A DNA stretch of 64,000 nucleotides from Torpedo marmorata (Eukaryota). The translations under genes were made by a program, and so were the position numbers. Where the stretch lies: NCBI GenBank assembly GCA_977017645.1, contig OZ360219.1:22692001-22756000 (forward strand), read 5' to 3'. The notes beneath the pieces are model-generated. The model was not told the DNA's origin, made no database searches, and saw only the letters and a list, made by a program, of their open reading frames with translations. Shown in pieces: positions 13,003 through 46,564 of the stretch; the first letter of the stretch is position 1; each line of letters begins with the position of its first letter.

Positions 13003-14340
13003 TTAGAACCCTTCAAAATCACTTTCGCTATCATTGTCTGAGGCAAAGATCTCGGCAAGCACATCCGGGGTCTCACTGTTTAAACAGTCATCGTACGGGT
13101 CCCAGTCTGTATCTGATGAGGCGTCTTCAGCTTCGTCGTCAGTGTCCCACAATAAATCATCTTCCGTACCATCAATTGCACAAGAGATACCGCACTTTTT
13201 AAACGATTTTATTATAGTCTCTACTTTCACTTTGTCCCATGCCTTGAGCACGAAGTCACACAGCACATCAAGCGATGCAGCACGCATTGCCCCGCCTTTT
13301 GTAAATGATTTTTCTGCACTCGACATCCATGTATTCCACTCTTCACGCACGTGGTCTTTGAATGGCTTGTTCAAGCAGACATCGAGAGGTTGCAATATTG
13401 ACGTCAAACCACCCGGGATAACCGCCATGTGAGTATTATGTTGTGCTAATGTACTTTTAGTCTTCTCAGTTAAGTGGCTACGAAACATATCCCAGACCAG
13501 CAAACTCCGTTCCTTGCGTAAACCGCCTGGCCGCCTGTTCCACACATTGTCTATCCATAGTTTTACACCATTTTCATCCATCCATCCTTTTTCATGAAAA
13601 TGTACAAAAATACCTGCAGGGAATTTTATTTTAGGTTTAAATTTGCGTTTGAAGATTACCATGGGTCTTAACTTTGTCCCGTCGGCCATGCACGATAACA
13701 CCACGGTAAACCTGGTCCTTTCATGTCCTGTACTCCTCATTTGCACAGTTTTCACACCTTTCCATTCCACTGTTCTATTGCCTATCATGTCAAAATTCAT
13801 GGGGGTTTCGTCCATGTTTCCAATATTTGCCAATGCAAACTTGTGTTTCTTCCGGTTACGTAAAATAAACTGGTGAAAACTTACAACTTTATGATCAAGA
13901 TCTTTTGGTAGTTTCTGAGCAATTTTAGTTTTTTGTCGTAATACCAGATTTTTCCTGTTCATAAAACGGTTGCACCAGCCTACTGAAGCTTCAAAATCAT
14001 TACTGAGTTCTGGGTGCGACTTTGCCCAGTTCAGTGCAAATGTCCTTATTTTATTTCGGGTGACTATGTAGCAATCTTGCCTCTGTTCACGTACCCATGC
14101 TGCTACATGATTTTCCAACTCTGGCCAACGAGTGATTCCTCTTCTCATGGAACATTGCCTTTTTGGTATTTTTCTTAAAGTCTCTTCTTTCTTCCTCCAA
14201 TCTCTTACCAACTTCTCATATATACCAAATTTTCTTGCAGCAGCACAGTTGTTGGTTTTCTTTGCCATTTCTACTACTTTCAATTTAAAACTCGCCTCAT
14301 ACTTTCGTCATTTCAATTGAGCCTTCAATGGAGCCTCCAT
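13003..14340 (-). pseudogene. pogo transposase (Brinker-like DBD, CENP-B HTH, DDE_1); 445 codons with one stop at codon 11
   Basis: MEAPLKAQLK*RKYEASFKLKVVEMA...; NMDETP, LVWDMFRSH, LQPLDVC with 35 residues between the 2nd and 3rd D; acidic tail. Confidence 0.9.
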
Positions 14341-29052: not shown

Positions 29053-32000
29053 AGCACTTCTTCCGAACCTATCACCACTTTAGCGGCGAGAACCGCTTCT
29101 CGAACAATGGAGGGGGGTAACACTGGGAATAGAAGACCAGTGTTCTTTATAGGGGTTTTTCTTCTTATCTTATTACTTCTTTTTTTCATTCTAATAGAGG
29201 AGGACATATGTATGCAAATGAGTAAGAGGGATACGCTGGTGGATCTGATTGACAGGGAAGGATTATTATTATTTTATTATGGGGGATTCTAAGAGTATAA
29301 ACTTAGTTAGTATTAATATAAATGGGCTTAACAATCCAATTAAAAGGAAAAGAACTTTGACATATATAAAGAAATTGAAGGTAGATATAGCCTTTTTACA
29401 AGAAACTCACTTGACGGATGTTGAACATCAGAAATTGAAAAGAGATTGGGTAGGACATGTTGTAGCTTCATCATTTAATTCTAGAGCAAGGGGAGTTGCT
29501 ATTTTAGTTAATAAAAAGTTGCCCTTCAGGATACAATCGACAGTCATAGATACGGCAGGTAGATATGCTTTGATTTATTGCCAAATTTATTCAGAATTTT
29601 GGACTCTTATGAATTTGTATGTGTCAAATCCAGATGATGAACAGTTTATTCAAGATGCTTTTTTACATTTATCAGATGCCAAAGATAACATTTTAGTTGG
29701 TGGTGATTTCAATTGTTGTTTAAATGCAATAATGGATAAAACTTCCAAAACAGTTGTTAGACCAAAAATAGTGAAGAAGATAGTTAATTTGATGGAGGAT
29801 TTAAATTTGGTAGATATTTGGAGAAAATTAAAGCCTAGGGAGAAGGATTATTCATTCTACTCATTTAGACATAATTCTTTTTCAAGGATAGATTTATTTT
29901 TATTGTCTTCACAACTTCAGGAAAGAATAACACAGATATCTTATAAAGCAAGAATAATTTCGGATCATTCACCTTTATTAATGACGTGTATAATTCCAGA
30001 GAAAGAAAAGACTATTTATAACTGGAGATTTGATTCTTTATTATTGAAAAGGAAGGATTTTTGTGAATATATGAGACGAGAAATTCAGGAATTTTTAAGA
30101 GTAAATAATAATTCGGTAGATGATAAATTTATGGTATGGGAAGCTTTGAAAGCTTATTTAAGAGGTTTAACAATAAGTTTTTCAGCAAAGATAAAAAAAG
30201 ATTATTTGAGAGAAGAAGAAAAATTAGAGAAGGAGATTGAAATTATGGAAAAAGATTCACAGAGAAACCGGTCTATTCTTAAGAGGAACCGTTTAGTAAG
30301 GAAGAAATTACATTATAATTTATTGCAAACGCGTAAGACTGAAAAATTAATAGTAAGAACAAAACAAAGATATTATGAATTAGGGGAAAAGGCACACAAG
30401 GTGTTATCATGGCAATTGAAAAAAGAGCAAGTTTCAAAAACAATTAATGCTATAAGGAAGAGAAATACAGGGGTAATAACATATAAGCCACAAGAAATAA
30501 ATGAATCTTTTAAAGAATATTATCAGAATTTATATAGATCTGAGACAGATCAAGATGAAACGAAGATAAATAGATTTTTATCTAAAATTACTTTACCTAA
30601 ATTGACTGTTCAAAGTAAATATTCTTTGGATTTACCTTTTACGATGAGAGAAGTTACTGAAGCAATATCGACGTTGAGAAGTGGTAAATCTCCAGGTGAT
30701 GATGGATTTCCAGTAGAATTTTATAAAGAATTTAAAGATTTATTGATACCTTTGTATATGGAGGTATTGAATCAAGTTATGGAAACTCATTTGTTACCGA
30801 AGACATTTTTAAATGCTATTATTACGGTTATACCAAAGAAGGATAGAGATGTATTAAAAACAGAGTCTTATAGGCCTATTTCACTGTTAAATGTAGATTA
30901 TAAGATAATGGCGAAAATTTTAGCAAATAGATTAGCTAAATGTCTACCACATTTAATACATTCGGATCAAGCCGGATTTATTAAAAATAGATATTCGAAA
31001 GATAATATAGCTAGATTGTTAAGCTTAATTAATGTATATAAGAAGAAACAAGATCTGCCACTGGTGGTAACATTGGATGCAGAAAAGGCATTTGATAGAG
31101 TAGAGTGGAATTTTTTATTTAAGGTTTTGGAAAAATTTGGATTTGGAGATAACTTTATAAATTGGATTAAAACTATATATAAGGAACCTACGGCTAAAGT
31201 AGTTACAAATGGACAGATATCGCAAAAGTTTTTGTTATCAAGATCAACACGACAGGGATGTCCTTTATCCCCTGCTTTGTTTGTGTTGGTAATAGAACCT
31301 TTAGCAGAAATGATTAGAGAAGATATAAATATAATGGGAATAAAGGTGGGTAGGGAAGAGCATAAGATTAGTTTGTTTGCAGATGATGTATTAATATATA
31401 TGACAAAATCTGTTACGTCACTTCAACAATTGGCTATTATATTGACAGAATATGGTGAGATATCAGGATACAAGATTAATTCAGATAAAAGTGAGATTTT
31501 GGCTTTATCGCAAGGGGATTATACTAGATGTAAAGAAGTTACAGACTTTAAGTGGACTACAGAGAGTATTAAATATTTGGGAGTTAAAGTAGATACAAAT
31601 TTGGAAAATTTGTATAAATTAAATTATACACCTTTATTTACTAAAATAAAAAAAGATTTAGAGCTTTGGAAAGACTTACCGATAACGTTGATGGGAAGAG
31701 TAAATTGTATTAAAATGAATGTTTTTCCAAGAATTCAATATCTTTTTCAATCGATTCCTTATGGTATTCCAAATAAATTTTTTAAAGATTTAAAATTTAT
31801 TGTTAGGAAATTTCTATGGAAAGGAAAGTTGGCAAGAGTAAGTATAGATAAATTAACATGGAATTATGAAATGGGAGGATTACAACTTCCTAATTTTCAA
31901 CATTATTATAAAGTAGCTCAGTTAAAATTTATTAATGAATTTTTTGATTTGGATAAAACTTCTGCTTGGATTAATATAGAATTGAATAATATGGGAGAAA

Positions 32001-33270
32001 TACATAAAGAAGATATTATTTATAAATGGAACCCTAAATTATTATTACTTAAAAAGAAAAAAACACCAATTATTAAACATTTGTTGGAAATTTGGTCGCA
32101 AGTAGATAAGGAGATAGGTCAAAAAGGATTAATTTCTTTAAATACACCAATATATCAGAATCCACTTTTACCATTTTCTATGGATAATCAATTACTTAAA
32201 TTATGGTTTTTAAAGGGAGTTAAGACATTAAAAGATTGTTTTGAAGCAGGTAAATTTGTTACCTTTCAGAGGTTAAAGGAAAAATTTAATATATTAGATA
32301 ATACAATGTTAGTTTATTTTCAAGTTAGAGCTTTTTTGATTGAAAGATTAGGGAATGAATTAACAGTATTAAGACAAAGTGAATTGGAGTTATTAATTAC
32401 TAAAGTTAATGTTAATAAATTTATATCACAGATGTACAAGTTGTTTCAAAGAAAAATGTCTAAGGTAGGAGAGCATAAGTCTAGATTGAAATGGGAGTCT
32501 GATTTGAATGTTAATATAGATGAAAAACATTGGAAAGATTTATGTAAACTAAGTATGACAAAAGTTATTAATGTGAGATATAGATTAGTACAATATAATT
32601 TTTTTCATCAATTGTATTTGACACCTAGAAAATTGAAGAAATTTAACCCAGCGTTATCAGATACGTGTTTCAGATGTAAAACTGAAATAGGATCTTTTGT
32701 ACATTGTACATGGTCATGTTCAAAGATTCAAGAATTTTGGTTGAAAGTTAAGAATTTTTTAGAAAGAATTTTTAATGTTGAAATTGCAATGGATCCTATG
32801 TTATTTTTATTTGGAGACATTAAAAAATTTAGTATTAGACATAAATTGAATATGTATCAAGTAGAATTTTTACGTATAATATTAGCAATTTCAAAAAAAT
32901 GTATAGCTATTACTTGGAAATCGGATGTTGATTTAAATTTAGAACGATGGCATGCAGAGTTACGGTCATGTATACCATTGGAAAAAATTACCTATAATTT
33001 ATGAAATAAATATCATTCTTTTTTAAAAATTTGGGGCCCATATACGAGGATTATGGGTTTAACATTGTGAATTCTCTGGATATTAGACCTACCGGCGAAA
33101 CAACCTCTAAGATATATTAGTGTTTTCTTTTTTAAGCTTATTGACTCCTCGTTCTATCTTTATATCTCTACTTTTTCTTTTATCTTTACTATTATTATTT
33201 TATATTTTTTAAATTAGATTGGGGGGTATAAAAAAAAAAAAATAAAAAGAAAAAAAAAAAAAAAAAATAA
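29053..33270 (+). mobile_element. Young L1 (element B), truncated in the inter-ORF spacer and inserted antiparallel into element A
   Basis: 16-bp TSD aaaaatttcctaataa 29037-29052 / 33271-33286; ~40-nt A tail. Confidence 0.93.
29279..33004 (+). CDS. L1 ORF2p (APE endonuclease, RT, CCHC); 1241 aa from the ATG, last 22 aa lost to a TGA
   Basis: NINGL, FLQETH, GGDFN, SRIDLF, SDHSP, QGCPLSP, FADD, CFRC...HCTWSC. Reading continues past the stop (NKYHSFLKIWGPY) to a TGA at 33070, as in sister copies. Confidence 0.93.
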   Translation: MGDSKSINLVSININGLNNPIKRKRTLTYIKKLKVDIAFLQETHLTDVEHQKLKRDWVGHVVASSFNSRARGVAILVNKKLPFRIQSTVIDTAGRYALIYCQIYSEFWTLMNLYVSNPDDEQFIQDAFLHLSDAKDNILVGGDFNCCLNAIMDKTSKTVVRPKIVKKIVNLMEDLNLVDIWRKLKPREKDYSFYSFRHNSFSRIDLFLLSSQLQERITQISYKARIISDHSPLLMTCIIPEKEKTIYNWRFDSLLLKRKDFCEYMRREIQEFLRVNNNSVDDKFMVWEALKAYLRGLTISFSAKIKKDYLREEEKLEKEIEIMEKDSQRNRSILKRNRLVRKKLHYNLLQTRKTEKLIVRTKQRYYELGEKAHKVLSWQLKKEQVSKTINAIRKRNTGVITYKPQEINESFKEYYQNLYRSETDQDETKINRFLSKITLPKLTVQSKYSLDLPFTMREVTEAISTLRSGKSPGDDGFPVEFYKEFKDLLIPLYMEVLNQVMETHLLPKTFLNAIITVIPKKDRDVLKTESYRPISLLNVDYKIMAKILANRLAKCLPHLIHSDQAGFIKNRYSKDNIARLLSLINVYKKKQDLPLVVTLDAEKAFDRVEWNFLFKVLEKFGFGDNFINWIKTIYKEPTAKVVTNGQISQKFLLSRSTRQGCPLSPALFVLVIEPLAEMIREDINIMGIKVGREEHKISLFADDVLIYMTKSVTSLQQLAIILTEYGEISGYKINSDKSEILALSQGDYTRCKEVTDFKWTTESIKYLGVKVDTNLENLYKLNYTPLFTKIKKDLELWKDLPITLMGRVNCIKMNVFPRIQYLFQSIPYGIPNKFFKDLKFIVRKFLWKGKLARVSIDKLTWNYEMGGLQLPNFQHYYKVAQLKFINEFFDLDKTSAWINIELNNMGEIHKEDIIYKWNPKLLLLKKKKTPIIKHLLEIWSQVDKEIGQKGLISLNTPIYQNPLLPFSMDNQLLKLWFLKGVKTLKDCFEAGKFVTFQRLKEKFNILDNTMLVYFQVRAFLIERLGNELTVLRQSELELLITKVNVNKFISQMYKLFQRKMSKVGEHKSRLKWESDLNVNIDEKHWKDLCKLSMTKVINVRYRLVQYNFFHQLYLTPRKLKKFNPALSDTCFRCKTEIGSFVHCTWSCSKIQEFWLKVKNFLERIFNVEIAMDPMLFLFGDIKKFSIRHKLNMYQVEFLRIILAISKKCIAITWKSDVDLNLERWHAELRSCIPLEKITYNL

Positions 33271-39190: not shown

Positions 39191-40146
39191 CTGTTGACAG
39201 AAGGAAATAATAAACAAATATAACGAATTACTGTGCCAATCACCAGAAATATCACTGAGAATGCTTTTGTCGTCACAAAATAGAGTACATTTCATATTTT
39301 GATAATAGCAGATACTAAATAACGAAAATTGTATGCAATGCCATAAAGCATCACAAATACAAATTGTATGAATAAATTAGTGCATTACTATCGATAAGTG
39401 AACTTATAATCACTGAACAAGTTACATGTCACATATGATGGGCAAAATTCAGTTCACAACCAGAAAAATTATATAAAAAGAAGAAATTTGATTAAAGAGC
39501 ACTTGTAAGAAAGCAGCTGCAGACAACAGTAAATTGAACTCTGGAATATTTTATAAACAAAATGCAAGTCATCGTGAATGCTCAGACTAATAAGCATTCA
39601 AGAAAATAACTTCAGAGATCAAAAAGGCACAGTAAAATGTTAAGTGGGGACTGTAGCTGTCTTTATAAAGGGGATGAAGTGAAGGTTACATTAAGCGCAC
39701 CATAAAATATTAGACAATGTAAAAAATAAAAACTGAAGGTATTCCTGAAAATGGGAAGTCACCTTGTTCAGATAGAATCAAGCCTGGGTCATTAACTGAA
39801 GCAAAGAAAAAAAAAATCACAGGCAATTTTTCAATCTTTCGATTAGATTATTGGTTATGGCAGCAGCATCATAGAATTATGAATGATGTACTAAAAGAAA
39901 GGGCAAAAATTGAGTGAACACAAGTTAATAAATACTCATGCTGGTGATACTTGTGTCTAACAACTAAAATATTTGATCAGGTCATTCAGCGGATGTTGTG
40001 TATATGGATTTCTAGAGGCATTGAATGAAGTACACTTCAAACGATACTAAAAGTTAGGTTAAAAGCATGAGCTTAAAAGAGAAAAGCAATAAAATTCAGG
40101 GATAAAACCTGAAGCGCTCAGATTCAGCAAATGAAGAGAAGATCAT

Positions 40147-40829
40147 TGTAAGAGCCATAGGCTCACTACTTGCCCGATGTTTTGGCCGCGGGCGCCGGCG
40201 GTGTTCCGGGGCCCGTGGGCCTCTTCCATTAGGCTGCACGCGCGAGTGCCGCCACCGCTTGCGGAGCTGGAGGGTGGCGGCGCTTGCGTGGTTGGCTCGG
40301 CGGCTTCGGCCGGCGCATCCATCAGTGCACATGCGCACTGATGGACTGGGTCGACGCGTGCGCGGTTGTCTCAGCCCTGGCGGCGAGCGGTTGGAGCCGG
40401 GGCCAGCGCGTGTACTACGGAGCATGCGCGGGTGGGACCTGCGCGTTTAAATATAGGTTCCCCCGCGCGAGTCGACAGTTGAAAACCTGAGGAGGGTGAG
40501 TTGGGTGTCGACAATTCCTGTCGACCGTTTAGGACACGTTTGATACGTTTAGGATCGTTTGATATCGTTTAGGATACGTTTTAACATCGTTTAACACGTT
40601 TTGGAACACCTTTTATAACTTTTTAAAATCGTTTTAGATCCTTTTACATTGTTTTACCTCACTTCAAGAAATGTTTGTATTGAAGTCACTTGAAGATTAC
40701 TGCAAGTCAAATGTAAATAAAGGTTTTTGAACATTTTGGACTTTGCTAGTAAATTAATGAAAACGCGTCGCAGACAAACACCTAACTTAGCCTCCAAGTG
40801 ACTATTTTTTATTGGACGAAGTCGCTACA
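40147..40829 (+). repeat. BEL 5' LTR (683 bp) with CpG-rich U3
   Basis: Direct repeat of 45258-45961; TATA-like tttaaatata 40446-40455; AATAAA near 40716. Confidence 0.95.
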
Positions 40830-41258
40830 TTAAGTCGACAGGAAATTGTTGTACTAAGTCGACAGGAAATTGTTGTATTAAGTCGACAGGAAAGGTCGCT
40901 GAAACGGAAAATAGGATAGGAAGGAGAAGCCAGGAGGGTCAGTGAGGTTTTCAGATACATAAGGACCACACTTAGCCTCCAAGTGACCAACGTTGGATCG
41001 AAGTCACCGCAACCTACATAGTCAATAAAGAGCTGGCTGTTTGGAACAGAAAATAGAAGGAAAGAAGATAAAAAAAACTCGTTTGTGGATTGCAGCACAT
41101 TACAGTCAGTTGAAGTGGTTGGCATAAGTCTGTGGACTCCTTCTGTGTATCTTTAGTAAGTAAGAACACAGATTGGAATTGCTGCCGCTGGTCCATTGGG
41201 GACTGTTGTTTGGCTGGTATTGTGTATGCTTGAAGGAAAGAGGAACTAGACGAGTAAA

Positions 41259-44010
41259 ATGGCCGCAGCAGCCTCTGACACAGCAGCTACTGATATATCA
41301 GCAGCTGGCGCAGCAACCGCTGATGTTGCTGTTGAGGACCAACGTATTGAAGACATGAAGGTTTCGGATATTAAAGAAGAATTGAAGTGACTGAAAAAGG
41401 ACATAAGAGGAAATAAAAGGGTTCTTATCGAAAGATTGAAGCAGGCAAAGGATGAAGAGGCAGCTTCATTAAATGAACAAGAAGATAACTTGGAAATGGC
41501 TGAAATTGTGTCAACAAATGATGAAGAAATTAAAGTGGTTAAAGATGCAAAGGATATACAATTTGAATTGAATAAAGAGGTAAGTATGAAGACTACATAT
41601 GAACTGCAGAACGAAATACAAGCAAGTGACAGTGTCTCAAATGCTGAAAGCAGGAGAAGCAAAAGAAGTTCTGGTTCGAGCTCCAGAGTTTCTCGTACTA
41701 CAAGTTCTGCATCGTCACGTACAGAGATTGATGTTGACTTGGCCGCTCTTTTTGCACAACAAAAAACGCTTAAGGAGAAACATATTTTAGAACAAAAGGA
41801 GGAGCAGATAAGACAAAAGGAGGTGCAGCTAAAGGAGCAGCTAAGACAAAAGGAGGAGCAGATAAGACAAAATGAGAAGCAGCTAATGGAGCAGCTAAGA
41901 CAAGAGAAGGAGCAGCTAAGGCAGAGAAAAGAACAGCAGGAGCTGGAAGCAAACATTGCTATTGCCAAGGCAGAAAAGAAAGCAATAGAAGGCTCAATGG
42001 TATCTGGTGCTAGCAGTAAATTATCTAAATTGTCTGATAATAAAGGGTCATATTTAAAAAAGGAGTCACAGGAAAAGAAACCAACCAAAAGGATAGATAT
42101 TTTAGAACCAAGGATACAAAACTTACATATACAAGGACAAACCTTTCAAGGGCATATTGGTATCGAGTCATATGTACCAATAGTAACATCTGAAGACAAG
42201 GCTGCGGCTTGGGTTCGGTCGAACGAAGCAGCTTCTTTGTTATTTGAGTCAAGAATCAGAAATATGGAAGAAACTACACCAGTGAGGTTTCCAGATACAT
42301 TGCATGCAACAAGAGACAGTGAACAGAGCAATGTATTGACATCCAAGGAAAGACAAAATGAAATTGCTGCATCATTGTTTCAGTTACAGTCTCTCTCTTC
42401 TTTACCCAAAAAAGAGATACAAACCTTTGATGGTGATCCACTTCAATATCAATCATTTATGAGATCTTTCAAACGCAATATTGAAGATAAATGCCAAGAT
42501 CGTGATGAATGTCTTTATTATTTGGAAATGTTTACAAAGGGACATCCAAAAGAACTGGTAAAGAGTTGTAAACAAATGTCTTCAGGAAGAGGATTAGACA
42601 AAGCTAAGGCTTTATTGGAACAATATTTTGGCAACAAGCATCGAATTGCTTTAGCTTATATGGATAAAGCTCTTAATTGGACATCAATAAAACAAAATGA
42701 TGTAAAGGCTCTGCAAGAATATACTCTGTTTTTAAGAGGATGTTGTAATGCTATGGAAGAAATCGATAATATTCGTGAGCTTGAAGTGCATAGTAATATG
42801 CGAATCATCTTAGAAAAATTACCTTACAAGTTATGGGATAGATGGAGAAATTTGGCTTGTGATTTACAAGTAGATTACGGTCGAAAGAGTACCTTAAAGG
42901 ATTTGGTAAATTTTCTTGAACGACGGGTGTACGTTGAAACAGATCCACTATATGGAAATGCCAGAGATAATTCAATGGGCAAAGATGTAAAGAAGTCTAA
43001 TACACAGTCTAGTCCGAAAGTAAAAAGGAGTACCTTTGCTACTAATGTGCAAGTTATAAGTAAAGGACAAAGTAAATAAGGAAAAGGAAAGTTTGCCTAA
43101 TGAAAAGAGTTGTTTGTTCTGTAAAGGTGGACATGCTTTGGAAATGTGTTTACGATTGGAAAAGAAGGAACATAAGGAGAAGATCGCTTTCTTAAAGGAA
43201 AATGGAATATGTTTTAGCTGTTTGTGTAAAGGACACATCAGTAAAAACTGCGAGAAGCGAATTAATTGTAACATATGCAATTTGAAACATCCTAGAATTT
43301 TGCATATCCATAACAGAAACAAGGAATTGGGAAAAGAGCAAACAGAAACAAAGGAAACAACAGAAAATAATGTTATAACCTCGGTTCAGACAAGTGGTCT
43401 TACTGGGGCCAGAATGAATAACTGCAAACTTTCAATAGTGCCTGTACAAGTCAAGACCAAGAAAGGGGATGTAATAGTTAAAACATATGCATTTTTAGAT
43501 CCAGGCAGCACTGCTTCCTTTTGCACGGAATGACTAATGAATAAACTTAATATTCAAGGAAGAAGATCAAGAATTATGTTAAGAACAATGGGACAAGAAA
43601 AGGTTGTTGAAACTAACATTGTTTCAGGCTTAGAGGTTGCTGGATTGGATGACAAAAAATTTTGTGATCTTCCAAGTGTATATACTCAGAAGACTATGCC
43701 TGTGAATGAAGGAAATATTCCTCATCAAAGGGATATCCATCATTTAGCTTATCTGTGGAAGGTTTATTTACCTGAAATTAATTCTGAGATAGAAATGCTG
43801 ATTGGTTCAGATGTGCCAAAGGTTTTGGAACCGAAAGAAGTAATAGAGAGTAAAAGGAATGGACCTTACGCTATTAGAACCAAGTTTGGTTGGACAATCA
43901 ATGGACCACTGGAAAGAAATAATGATACTGCTCAGGAACAGTTAGCGATAAATATTAATAGAATTTCGGTTGAGAAAGTTGAAGAGTTAAGCGAAGAGCA
44001 AAAACCGTGA
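41259..44010 (+). pseudogene. BEL gag-protease with an N-terminal SAP domain
   Basis: ATG 41259; in-frame TGA at 41388; frameshift ~43060; TGA at 43531; ORFs 41436-43079, 43093-43533 and 43537-44010. Confidence 0.85.
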
Positions 44011-44915
44011 CTAAGAAAATCACTTTTGAAGAAAAGAAAACAGATCAATGTGAAAATAAATCAATGGTATTTAAAACAACATTGAAGGAATTAATTTCGT
44101 CAGAAATGGATGAAAGTGAAGTATTAAAAAATGTTGCAAATAATACTATTGATCATTCATGTGTAATTGAATCCAATACAGGAATAAAACAAGTGACTGA
44201 AAACAAATCTGAATGTAGATTTTGTAGTTCAGAGATTACAACAGACAAAGCTAACGAAGAAATATTACAATGTGATGTAAAACTGGAAAACACAGAAAAC
44301 TGTACTGATGGAATAAAGAATATTGCGAATGATAATTTAATGCAATTGAATTCAGAGAAAAAAATGTTGAAAGGGGAATTGGAAATATTAGATAATCATG
44401 AAAACAGTAAACAGAAAGATTTAATTGTAAGTAAAACTCGCAAAGTCAGAAAGCGGAAGAAAAGAATAACTGCTGAAGAAATTAATACAGTTATCGAGGA
44501 AAGAGATTTAGCATTATCAAAATGTAAAAGGTTGGAGGAAGAGATTAATGTTTTGAAAGAGAACAAGTTATTGGTTAATAACACAAAACAATTAACAATG
44601 CAGAAAGAATGTGATATTGCATTGCAGAAATGTAACAAGCAAGACGAAGAAATTAAAAAATTTCAAGTTTGTCGCAACAGGATTGACAATGGAAATATCA
44701 ATGTATCACATGATATTTTGACTTCAGATCAAAGTATTAATTTCTCGAAAAGAACTGAGACCGAATTGAAAGTCGCAAAATTGGATTTGGAATTGCAGGA
44801 AAAAGCAATAGAAACAAGAGTGGTTAAACAGACCTGTTTAAAATCGAAAGGATCAAATAAATATTCAAATTCCAGTTCTGAGAGTTCAAATTCTTCACGA
44901 GAAGTGGAATACTGA
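44007..44915 (+). CDS. Coiled-coil ORF replacing pol; contains MIPOL1-like segments
   Basis: 302 open codons with no RT motifs; RITAEEINTVIEERDLALSKCKRLEEEI and LELQEKAIETRVVKQT resemble MIPOL1 as recalled. Needs BLAST. Confidence 0.6.
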   Translation: MTKKITFEEKKTDQCENKSMVFKTTLKELISSEMDESEVLKNVANNTIDHSCVIESNTGIKQVTENKSECRFCSSEITTDKANEEILQCDVKLENTENCTDGIKNIANDNLMQLNSEKKMLKGELEILDNHENSKQKDLIVSKTRKVRKRKKRITAEEINTVIEERDLALSKCKRLEEEINVLKENKLLVNNTKQLTMQKECDIALQKCNKQDEEIKKFQVCRNRIDNGNINVSHDILTSDQSINFSKRTETELKVAKLDLELQEKAIETRVVKQTCLKSKGSNKYSNSSSESSNSSREVEY

Positions 44916-45257
44916 AAAATGAAATAAAGTGAAACGACATGTTGAAGAAGTGCCTTGTGTTAAATTCAAAAAGAAAGCTGTGTCTATTCTGTCTGAGGAA
45001 GATCTGAGGTTTACTGGTAGACGTTTGTAACCCAAGGATTCTACAGAAAATGGAGGAACTGTAATAATTACAAAATGACTTTATTTTGTTGAATTTTGTG
45101 TTTGTACTTTGCCCACTACACGGACTGTAGAGTGGGGAAGAAAGAAGAAAAGATTTGTATATTTGTTCGAATGTTATATGGTCATTGTTATTATAATGTT
45201 ATAGTTATGTAATTATTATTAGAGACGTTACATCTCATTATAATAATTAGAGGCCGG

Positions 45258-45961
45258 TGTAAGAGCCATAGGCTCACTACTTGCCCGATGTTTTGGCCGA
45301 TGTTTGGTGGTGTTCCGGGGCCCGTGGGCCTCTTCCATTAGGCTGCACGCGCAAGTGCCGCCACCGCTTGCGGAGCTGGAGGGTGGCAGCGCTCACGTGG
45401 TTGGCTCGGCGGCGGCGGCTTTGGCCGGGGCCGGCGTATCCATCAGTGCACATGCGCACTGATGGACTGGGTCGACGCGTGCGCGGTTGTCTCGGCCCCG
45501 GCGGCGAGCGGTTGGAGCCGGGGCCAGCGCGTGTACTACGGAGCATGCGCGGGTGGGACCTGCGCGTTTAAATATAGGTTCCCCCGCGCGAGTCGACAGT
45601 TGAAAACCTGAGGAGGGTGAGTTGGGTGTCGACAATTCCTGTCGACCGTTTTGACATCGTTTAGGACACGTTTGATACTTTTAGGATCGTTTGATATCGT
45701 TTAGGATACGTTTTAACATCGTTTAACACGTTTTGGAACACCTTTTATAACTTTTTTAAATCGTTTTAGATCCATTTACATTGTTTTACCTCACTTCAAG
45801 AAATGTTTGTATTGAAGTCACTTGAAGATTACTGCAAGTCAAATGTAAATAAAGGTTTTTGAACATTTTGGACTTTGCTAGTAAATTAATGAAAACGCGT
45901 CGCAGACAAACACGTAACTTAGCTTCCAAGCGACTATTTTTTATTGGACGAAGTCGCTACA
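45258..45961 (+). repeat. BEL 3' LTR (704 bp)
   Basis: Differs from the 5' LTR by roughly a dozen substitutions and a few indels (counted by eye). Confidence 0.95.
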
Positions 45962-46564
45962 ATCATCAATAGACAAAGAAGATTGGAGATGTTCAAAAGA
46001 CTGGAATAGGCCATGCTTAGTGGTCGCAGAGGACTGTGTAGAGCATAAAGGGTTTATAAAGGAAAGCAAGGGGGTTGGAGAGGGCCAGGAATGTTGGAAG
46101 ATTTGATGGGGTGAAAGAGGGGTGGGAGTGGAGAGGGGTAGAAGGCCAAGAGAATAAAGAGAGACACTTTTTACCATAGCATTAGTTAACTAAAATATCA
46201 CCTGTGATCTTGGTGAGGCTTTTTCAGAATAGTTATAAACATTTAACTGGAGGAATTCAAACATGGAGTTTCAGGAAACACGGTATGCCTTTAGAATCAT
46301 ACAACCCAGTAAAGGACTTGAGGAGAAAGGGGATTGGTGATGTTGAGTGGTGTTGGGAGGTAGATGCATTACCACAAATGCAAGACAAAAAGAGATGATA
46401 AATATCAAGGGATATACTGTAAATAAATATTCACACTTGCAGTTAGTGCAAAAAAAAAAGCAAATGACATTTCATGAGTGCAGGAAGATATGAATGGATA
46501 CAGTAAAGCACGAAATTTGATTTTTTGAGCATACTTATACCTATAACAAGATGGAAGCTGTTGA

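Follow-up and report, generated by a model that had tools for sequence, protein, structure and literature searches.

A BEL/Pao retrotransposon family of Torpedo marmorata with spliced segments of BRCA1, MIPOL1 and Elongin A in the place of pol

Replication-defective transducing retroviruses carry a Gag-host fusion in the place of pol and depend on helpers. Captures of cellular sequence are also described for retrotransposons. In maize Bs1, pieces of three unlinked cellular genes, one of them out of frame, lie between parts of an LTR element with switch points in common; the element underwent secondary amplification and is present in 1-5 copies (PMC5131818, PMC5408686). For LTR-mediated retrocopies of animals, the account by Tan et al. 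(2016) describes internal retrocopies flanked by a discontinuous LTR element, with microsimilarity at the joints, two or more parents in some cases and a BEL element in one; the copies are few and young, and the word 'circular' is absent from the main text. Finally, mouse circRFWD2 pseudogenes exhibit a non-colinear joint at exon borders, no poly(A), and LTR sequence in their flanks, for which the supplement names MMERVK10C-int (PMC4897178). The 33 high-confidence copies are called pseudogenes, and the mechanism is left open (PMC4897178). Multi-gene capture, as in Bs1, and the retrocopying of circular RNAs (circRNAs) are each known already.

The element described here lies in a 64,000-nucleotide stretch of Torpedo marmorata DNA (the window), for which the original prediction was a BEL/Pao element with a MIPOL1-like open frame in the place of pol. 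We hold with considerable confidence that it is a broken copy of an abundant, pol-less BEL/Pao family in which pieces of BRCA1, MIPOL1 and Elongin A (ELOA) are joined in frame, and which is likely copied by helpers.

Layout of the element and its captured pieces

The element spans positions 40147-45961 of the window (5,815 bp, or 5.8 kb), and several features place it among BEL/Pao LTR retrotransposons. It has TG...CA LTRs and a 5-bp target duplication, a BEL-type gag and protease with DUF1759 above cut-off, and 87% protein identity over the first 890 amino acids to a pol-bearing element, or helper, that carries Peptidase_A17. The predicted 3' LTR and ATCAT duplication are both present, and a matching 5' LTR and ATCAT copy lie on the other side (Table 1). 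A SAP domain (PF02037, above cut-off) at the start of Gag (41355-41460) is also found in helpers. The order PR-RT-IN that defines an autonomous BEL/Pao element is not seen, as RT, RNase H and integrase are absent from the open frame of a sister copy and present in helpers.

Table 1. Features of the element, in positions of the window
Feature	Position	Strand	Remark
Left 5-bp target-site duplication (TSD), ATCAT	40142..40146	.	
5' LTR, TG...CA ends	40147..40829	+	~3% substitutions relative to 3' LTR
Leader	40830..41258	+	
BEL gag: SAP, DUF1759 capsid region, zinc knuckles	41259..43400	+	90-95% identical to helpers
BEL aspartic protease and linker	43401..44001	+	Similarity to helpers stops at 44001
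BRCA1-derived piece, two host exons (44000-44108, 44110-~44415), intron absent	44000..44415	+	
MIPOL1 exons f (3' part), g and h, spliced	44417..44677	+	In-frame deletion at g/h border
Non-colinear joint where MIPOL1 exon h ends and upstream exon b starts	44677..44678	+	Back-splice type
MIPOL1 exons b and c, spliced	44678..44831	+	In-frame deletion at b/c border
Elongin A (ELOA)-derived remnant, two host exons	44821..45026	+	Frames in sister copies stop at ~45030
End of BEL integrase (final codons), continuing into the first part of its 3' untranslated region	~45052..45094	+	
Purine-rich tract preceding 3' LTR	45242..45257	+	
3' LTR	45258..45961	+	
Right TSD, ATCAT	45962..45966	.	

Part of the leader (40961-41080; element positions 815-934) resembles the LTR end and adjoining leader of pol-bearing helpers. 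The first half of the LTR (40147-40540) is a CpG-dense, G+C-rich island in an otherwise A-rich element, and it is there that subfamilies diverge most. Elsewhere in the window, an intact LINE-type ORF2 of 1,251 codons (29249-33004, + strand) presumably encodes an endonuclease and RT, judged by eye, and further repeats are ones we take to be LINE, gypsy-like, Penelope-like and pogo-like (13003-14307).

Downstream of gag-protease, positions 43983-44915 are open for 310 codons from stop to stop, which bears out the open frame that had been claimed. A domain scan found no RT, RNase H or integrase family in this frame, nor any other Pfam match with a set that lacks the newer MIPOL1 models. The assignment of the whole frame to MIPOL1 was correct only for 44417-44831, which is flanked by BRCA1 and Elongin A sequence. 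A protein search with the frame returned 171 proteins at E<=0.001 (best 4.9e-17, sharks first), all 120 listed MIPOL1 matches among them bear the MIPOL1 Pfam pair, and the MIPOL1 piece is 74-87% identical in nucleotides to the host's own exons. The cargo begins with 415 nt of BRCA1: in a search of 1.8 billion representatives, the strong relatives were all BRCA1 proteins of cartilaginous fishes (E 2e-50), with 46% identity between the window frame and BRCA1 in the alignment. The cargo tail is Elongin A: PF06881 is above cut-off in two of five frames scanned, and the tail is 93% identical to a ray protein. Rays are the source of the best protein matches to the captured pieces.

A KLCL-like motif at 44972-45007 had been read as an integrase tail. 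We reject this origin because the segment maps to ELOA exons, being Elongin A in another reading frame, and the true remnant of the end of pol is confined to ~45052-45094. Older subfamilies retain ~55 integrase codons, whereas the window copy has only a few near 45052.

The parent genes were located by searching the genome with the parts missing from the element; each query returned a host locus, and all three loci have GT-AG borders. In the copies closest to the host genes (near-host copies), 2-4 BRCA1, 6 MIPOL1 and 5 ELOA exons abut with their introns absent. Pol is replaced by segments of three host genes that are unlinked to one another, each segment spliced and free of introns, and the proposed capture of an intronless cellular mRNA holds for all three. 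The insert has neither poly(A) nor a TSD of its own, and its intronless exons lie between discontinuous parts of one element, as in LTR retrocopies. Three joints exhibit 2-5 shared letters, the MIPOL1/ELOA joint being blurred by later deletions. Because template switching predicts such shared letters, this microsimilarity fits the mechanism described in PMC5131818. Capture would have occurred when reverse transcriptase switched templates between co-packaged RNAs at these 2-5-nt microhomologies.

In one variant (L041, L052), an early stretch of pol is followed by BRCA1 joined further upstream (four exons). Several independent protease/BRCA1 joints therefore exist, and this variant may be closer to the first capture. 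The genome also holds a second Elongin A-like gene (G000:C25:175.32-175.37 Mb), 68% identical over the C-terminal exon and with a Med26 domain in addition.

Compared with an unbroken sister, the window copy carries three stops, at 41388 (gag), 43531 (protease) and ~44920 (ELOA piece), and three frameshifts, at ~43060 (gag), ~44000 (protease/cargo) and ~44897 (ELOA piece). The end of its open frame at 44915 is one of these breaks and private to this copy, as sister copies continue through it. Another is the 4-nt overlap between gag-protease and the cargo frame that had been noted in the -1 frame; a programmed -1 frameshift there is ruled out because the break is private to the window copy and sister copies are continuous. 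The suggested Gag-PR-MIPOL1 fusion does occur, and it extends further: in unbroken sisters, Gag, protease and all three host pieces form one frame, with every main cargo block in the Gag frame. Among 58 copies of one subfamily (the window copy, 17 close relatives and 40 taken in consecutive order along contig C1), nine are open from the start of gag to the ELOA remnant (1,230-1,370 codons). A search for longer proteins, which is a weak test, found six MIPOL1 proteins and no annotated fusion among them.

Family size, helpers and selection on the open frame

When positions 43900-45260 were used as a query, all 40 scored matches (out of 6,108 candidates) were 97-100% identical over the full length. 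As the original prediction anticipated, many copies have distinct TSDs: 14 exact 5-bp duplications, all different, were found automatically among the 58 copies, and further copies show one when an offset of one or two bases is allowed at the border. LTR pairs could be compared in 46 of the 58 and differ by a median of 1.7% substitutions (minimum 0); in two older copies they differ by 7-9%. Exact genome-wide matches to three junction variants number 273, 4,854 and 3,219 (controls 1, 0 and 0), or over 8,000 overall, the latter two variants overlapping slightly. A protein search gave 39,821 candidates. Of 20 arbitrary 10-kb stretches, 3 contain cargo, and the 550 kb taken from the three host loci contain it five times. 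These densities suggest ~66,000 copies (29,000-131,000), fragments counted, if the large contigs are typical of the genome. Density multiplied by length indicates that the family likely makes up a few percent of the 6.2-Gb genome. For comparison, a survey of full-length BEL/Pao elements, in which the counting rule differs, gives maxima of 3.55 per Mb and 397 per family (PMC3118150).

Of the five cargo copies in the host loci, four lie in introns of MIPOL1 (G000:C40:64.29-64.64 Mb) and one lies inside BRCA1 (G000:C61), positions at which base pairing with the parent transcripts, or mis-splicing into them, could occur. At another locus (L150-L152; G000:C1:1.495-1.525 Mb), at least five nearly identical copies are arranged head to tail with shared LTRs at a spacing of ~4,964 bp. 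Contigs from three sequencing runs of two organisms cover gag through cargo and little of the LTR, and related cargo elements are thus present beyond this assembly.

Pao-type pol sequences are also numerous, with 6,618 candidates in the genome, some in frames exceeding 2,000 codons; helpers carry RT, Peptidase_A17 and integrase domains. Among 20 fetched pol-bearing elements, 17 are ~89-95% identical to the window element over gag-protease, with the match ending at 44001; one also shares its LTR with the window element, and in several the two LTRs are identical. A protease tree places helper groups between the near-host cargo copies and the younger ones, with one group nested in the latter. A single protease clade of cargo elements is rejected (AU test, p=1.1e-6; 23 versus 18 rows). 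In a tree of the BRCA1 exon, young copies are ~0.3 changes per site from the host-like group, and host and near-host sequences are separated by less than 0.1. Stretches below length or score limits were omitted from the trees. The interleaved protease tree indicates that backbones were exchanged between helpers and cargo elements, and the cargo lineage appears to have passed through many rounds of copying with repeated backbone swaps. An exact helper for the oldest, near-host copies was not found, the best candidate being 82% identical.

These relationships are consistent with a parasite that provides its own Gag and protease and would borrow RT and integrase from pol-bearing BEL helpers, its RNA being copied in trans. 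Repeated recombination would keep the gag-protease of the parasite matched to the currently active helper. Translation would have to traverse the cargo to near the 3' LTR if the RNA is to remain stable or be packaged. Capture by template switching, circular templates, copying in trans, and translation as a requirement for RNA survival or packaging are all established ideas.

Selection was assessed by comparing pN/pS of variants common to at least three copies with that of singletons. In the young subfamily, the shared and singleton values are 0.23 and 0.74 for capsid and 0.33 and 0.67 for protease, and in 30 copies of an older subfamily they are 0.36 and 0.99 for protease. Capsid and protease are thus under purifying selection, so the Gag-protease that the element itself encodes is important to it. 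Among cargo variants, stops account for 1 of 174 shared variants and 40 of 550 singletons (p=2e-4), demonstrating that inherited stops are purged. The two length differences that are nearly fixed between subfamilies preserve the reading frame, two rarer shared cargo indels are out of frame, and 15 of 59 singleton indels are in frame.

Why the frame is kept open is a separate question. The most likely reason, which we favor by a modest degree, is that the cargo serves above all as a spacer that is translated, its residues drifting toward the A-rich composition of the element. C>T, G>A or C>A changes make up 100 of 157 changes along the lineage, and the divergence from the host protein noted at the outset did arise within the element family. 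A pure spacer does not, however, predict amino-acid constraint on the MIPOL1 piece, and this is what the young subfamily exhibits (pN/pS 0.24 shared versus 1.43 singleton, p=7e-5).

A cargo polypeptide of the same origin might instead be useful to the element itself, which we consider possible and rather unlikely. It may, for example, act as a basic coiled-coil tail that helps the particle to assemble or to enter the nucleus, or it may bind host partners of BRCA1, MIPOL1 or Elongin A. Shared MIPOL1 variants in the young subfamily are as constrained as those of capsid (0.24 versus 0.23), pooling of the two subfamilies gives p=0.002 for MIPOL1 and 0.008 for all cargo, the BRCA1 piece has a host-to-window dN/dS of 0.43-0.51, and all three pieces are retained in their own protein frames. 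However, the constraint on MIPOL1 is not repeated in the 30-copy replicate (0.61 versus 0.72, p=0.8), and for this reason we reject strong protein constraint on the cargo. With seven regions tested, a single low p value is expected to be inflated. The BRCA1 and ELOA pieces give no significant amino-acid constraint when shared and singleton variants are compared. Long-term dN/dS is 0.65 overall, with no significant difference from rare variants (p=0.1-1.0; four tandem-array copies and L032 excluded), and large pieces have been lost; the window type, for instance, no longer has any of the Elongin A domain. Amino-acid constraint on the cargo is weak and mixed. We are similarly doubtful that a new protein of BRCA1, circular MIPOL1 and Elongin A parts is in use in the place of Pol, helping the parasite to out-replicate its helper. 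If it were, a chimeric tail would have raised this family to among the most abundant LTR families in a genome of 6 Gb, and for the first time a sequence derived from a circRNA would have spread to thousands of copies that encode protein and are under selection.

The order of the MIPOL1 exons

With exons labeled a-i after host MIPOL1, exons b-h have AG/GT borders and total 780 nt, and elements of the family carry them in the order f(3' part)-g-h-b-c-d(5' part), with near-host copies ~87-99% identical to host exons. Exon h ends directly against the first base of b in all 30 near-host loci, which were picked by protein score and not by junction. At the window joint after 44677, 45 of 60 and 41 of 60 letters are identical on the two sides, whereas 10 of 60 agree with the exon that follows in linear order and 26 of 60 with the intron; a graded series of copies exhibits stepwise decay from host letters to window letters at this joint. 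Flanking exons outside b-h have one match each, namely the host gene, these counts being floors, and weak local scores (66-83%) to such exons are scattered and do not keep the exon order.

A non-colinear junction that is exact to the exon borders is the criterion used for circRNA-derived pseudogenes (PMC4897178), and here a downstream donor joins an upstream acceptor exactly at both borders. We consider the h-to-b order to be the signature of a back-splice, the template having likely been a circular MIPOL1 RNA. This template would be a 780-nt circle of exons b-h, of which ~590 nt were copied, or under one turn. One copy (L098:5836-6945) carries a 405-nt tandem repeat of its MIPOL1 piece that produces a 459-codon frame. 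Rolling-circle turns are ruled out as its source, as the repeat is a 100% identical duplication with a joint in mid-exon, and it reflects either a recent duplication or an assembly artefact.

The same order could have been generated by a jump of reverse transcriptase within a linear mRNA, or from a linear trans-spliced transcript, since a circle and a linear non-colinear transcript would leave the same DNA. Three letters are common to the h|i and a|b borders, as many as at the other junctions of the element, and capture of less than one turn means that no repeated turn is visible. Yet ~18,000 pairs of exon positions share three letters and at most 36 of them are border to border, and thus a chance jump onto both borders has a probability of ~0.2%. 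Moreover, the captured exons are confined to b-h, and the long host introns that flank these exons (50 and 62 kb) contain inverted repeats. On balance we judge an origin without a circle to be improbable. Least credible of all is a genomic tandem duplication of exons b-h spliced to an ordinary mRNA, which would yield an identical junction and be invisible had the allele since been lost, as the present host locus holds a single copy of each exon within 350 kb and annotated MIPOL1 isoforms are colinear in four other cartilaginous fishes.

Comparison with known captures

A search of the openly searchable literature returned no description of this family or of both kinds of capture united in one in-frame, massively amplified vertebrate BEL family, and likewise no paper linking BRCA1, Elongin A and MIPOL1. 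In the literature searched, this is the first case found of a back-spliced junction inside a complete LTR element with a known helper. The family offers a dated, stepwise record of an LTR element capturing cellular RNAs, and indicates that such captures need not remain rare. Its thousands of age-graded copies make selection on a newborn chimeric frame, and the co-evolution of helper and parasite, directly measurable. As a practical matter, the thousands of fragments resembling BRCA1, MIPOL1 and ELOA are a potential source of error when genes are annotated, circRNAs called or small RNAs studied in these fishes.

The family shares with transducing retroviruses both the replacement of pol by a Gag-host fusion and the dependence on helpers, but it is a germline retrotransposon in which no envelope was seen and there is no sign of an oncogenic role. 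It is like the retrocopies of Tan et al. (2016) in the features given above, and differs from those few, young copies in its abundance. The closest precedents are maize Bs1 and the mouse circRFWD2 pseudogenes. The likeness to Bs1 lies in the capture of three unlinked genes, in shared switch points and in secondary amplification, whereas here the host is a vertebrate, the backbone is BEL/Pao, the copies number in the thousands to tens of thousands, all three pieces are in frame, one has a back-splice junction, and exchange with helpers has been long-term. Finally, in contrast to the circRFWD2 pseudogenes, the non-colinear junction lies within an LTR-to-LTR element with TSDs, in the Gag frame and next to pieces of two further genes, and its exact matches exceed 8,000; it supplies a candidate mechanism for the point left open in the mouse study.
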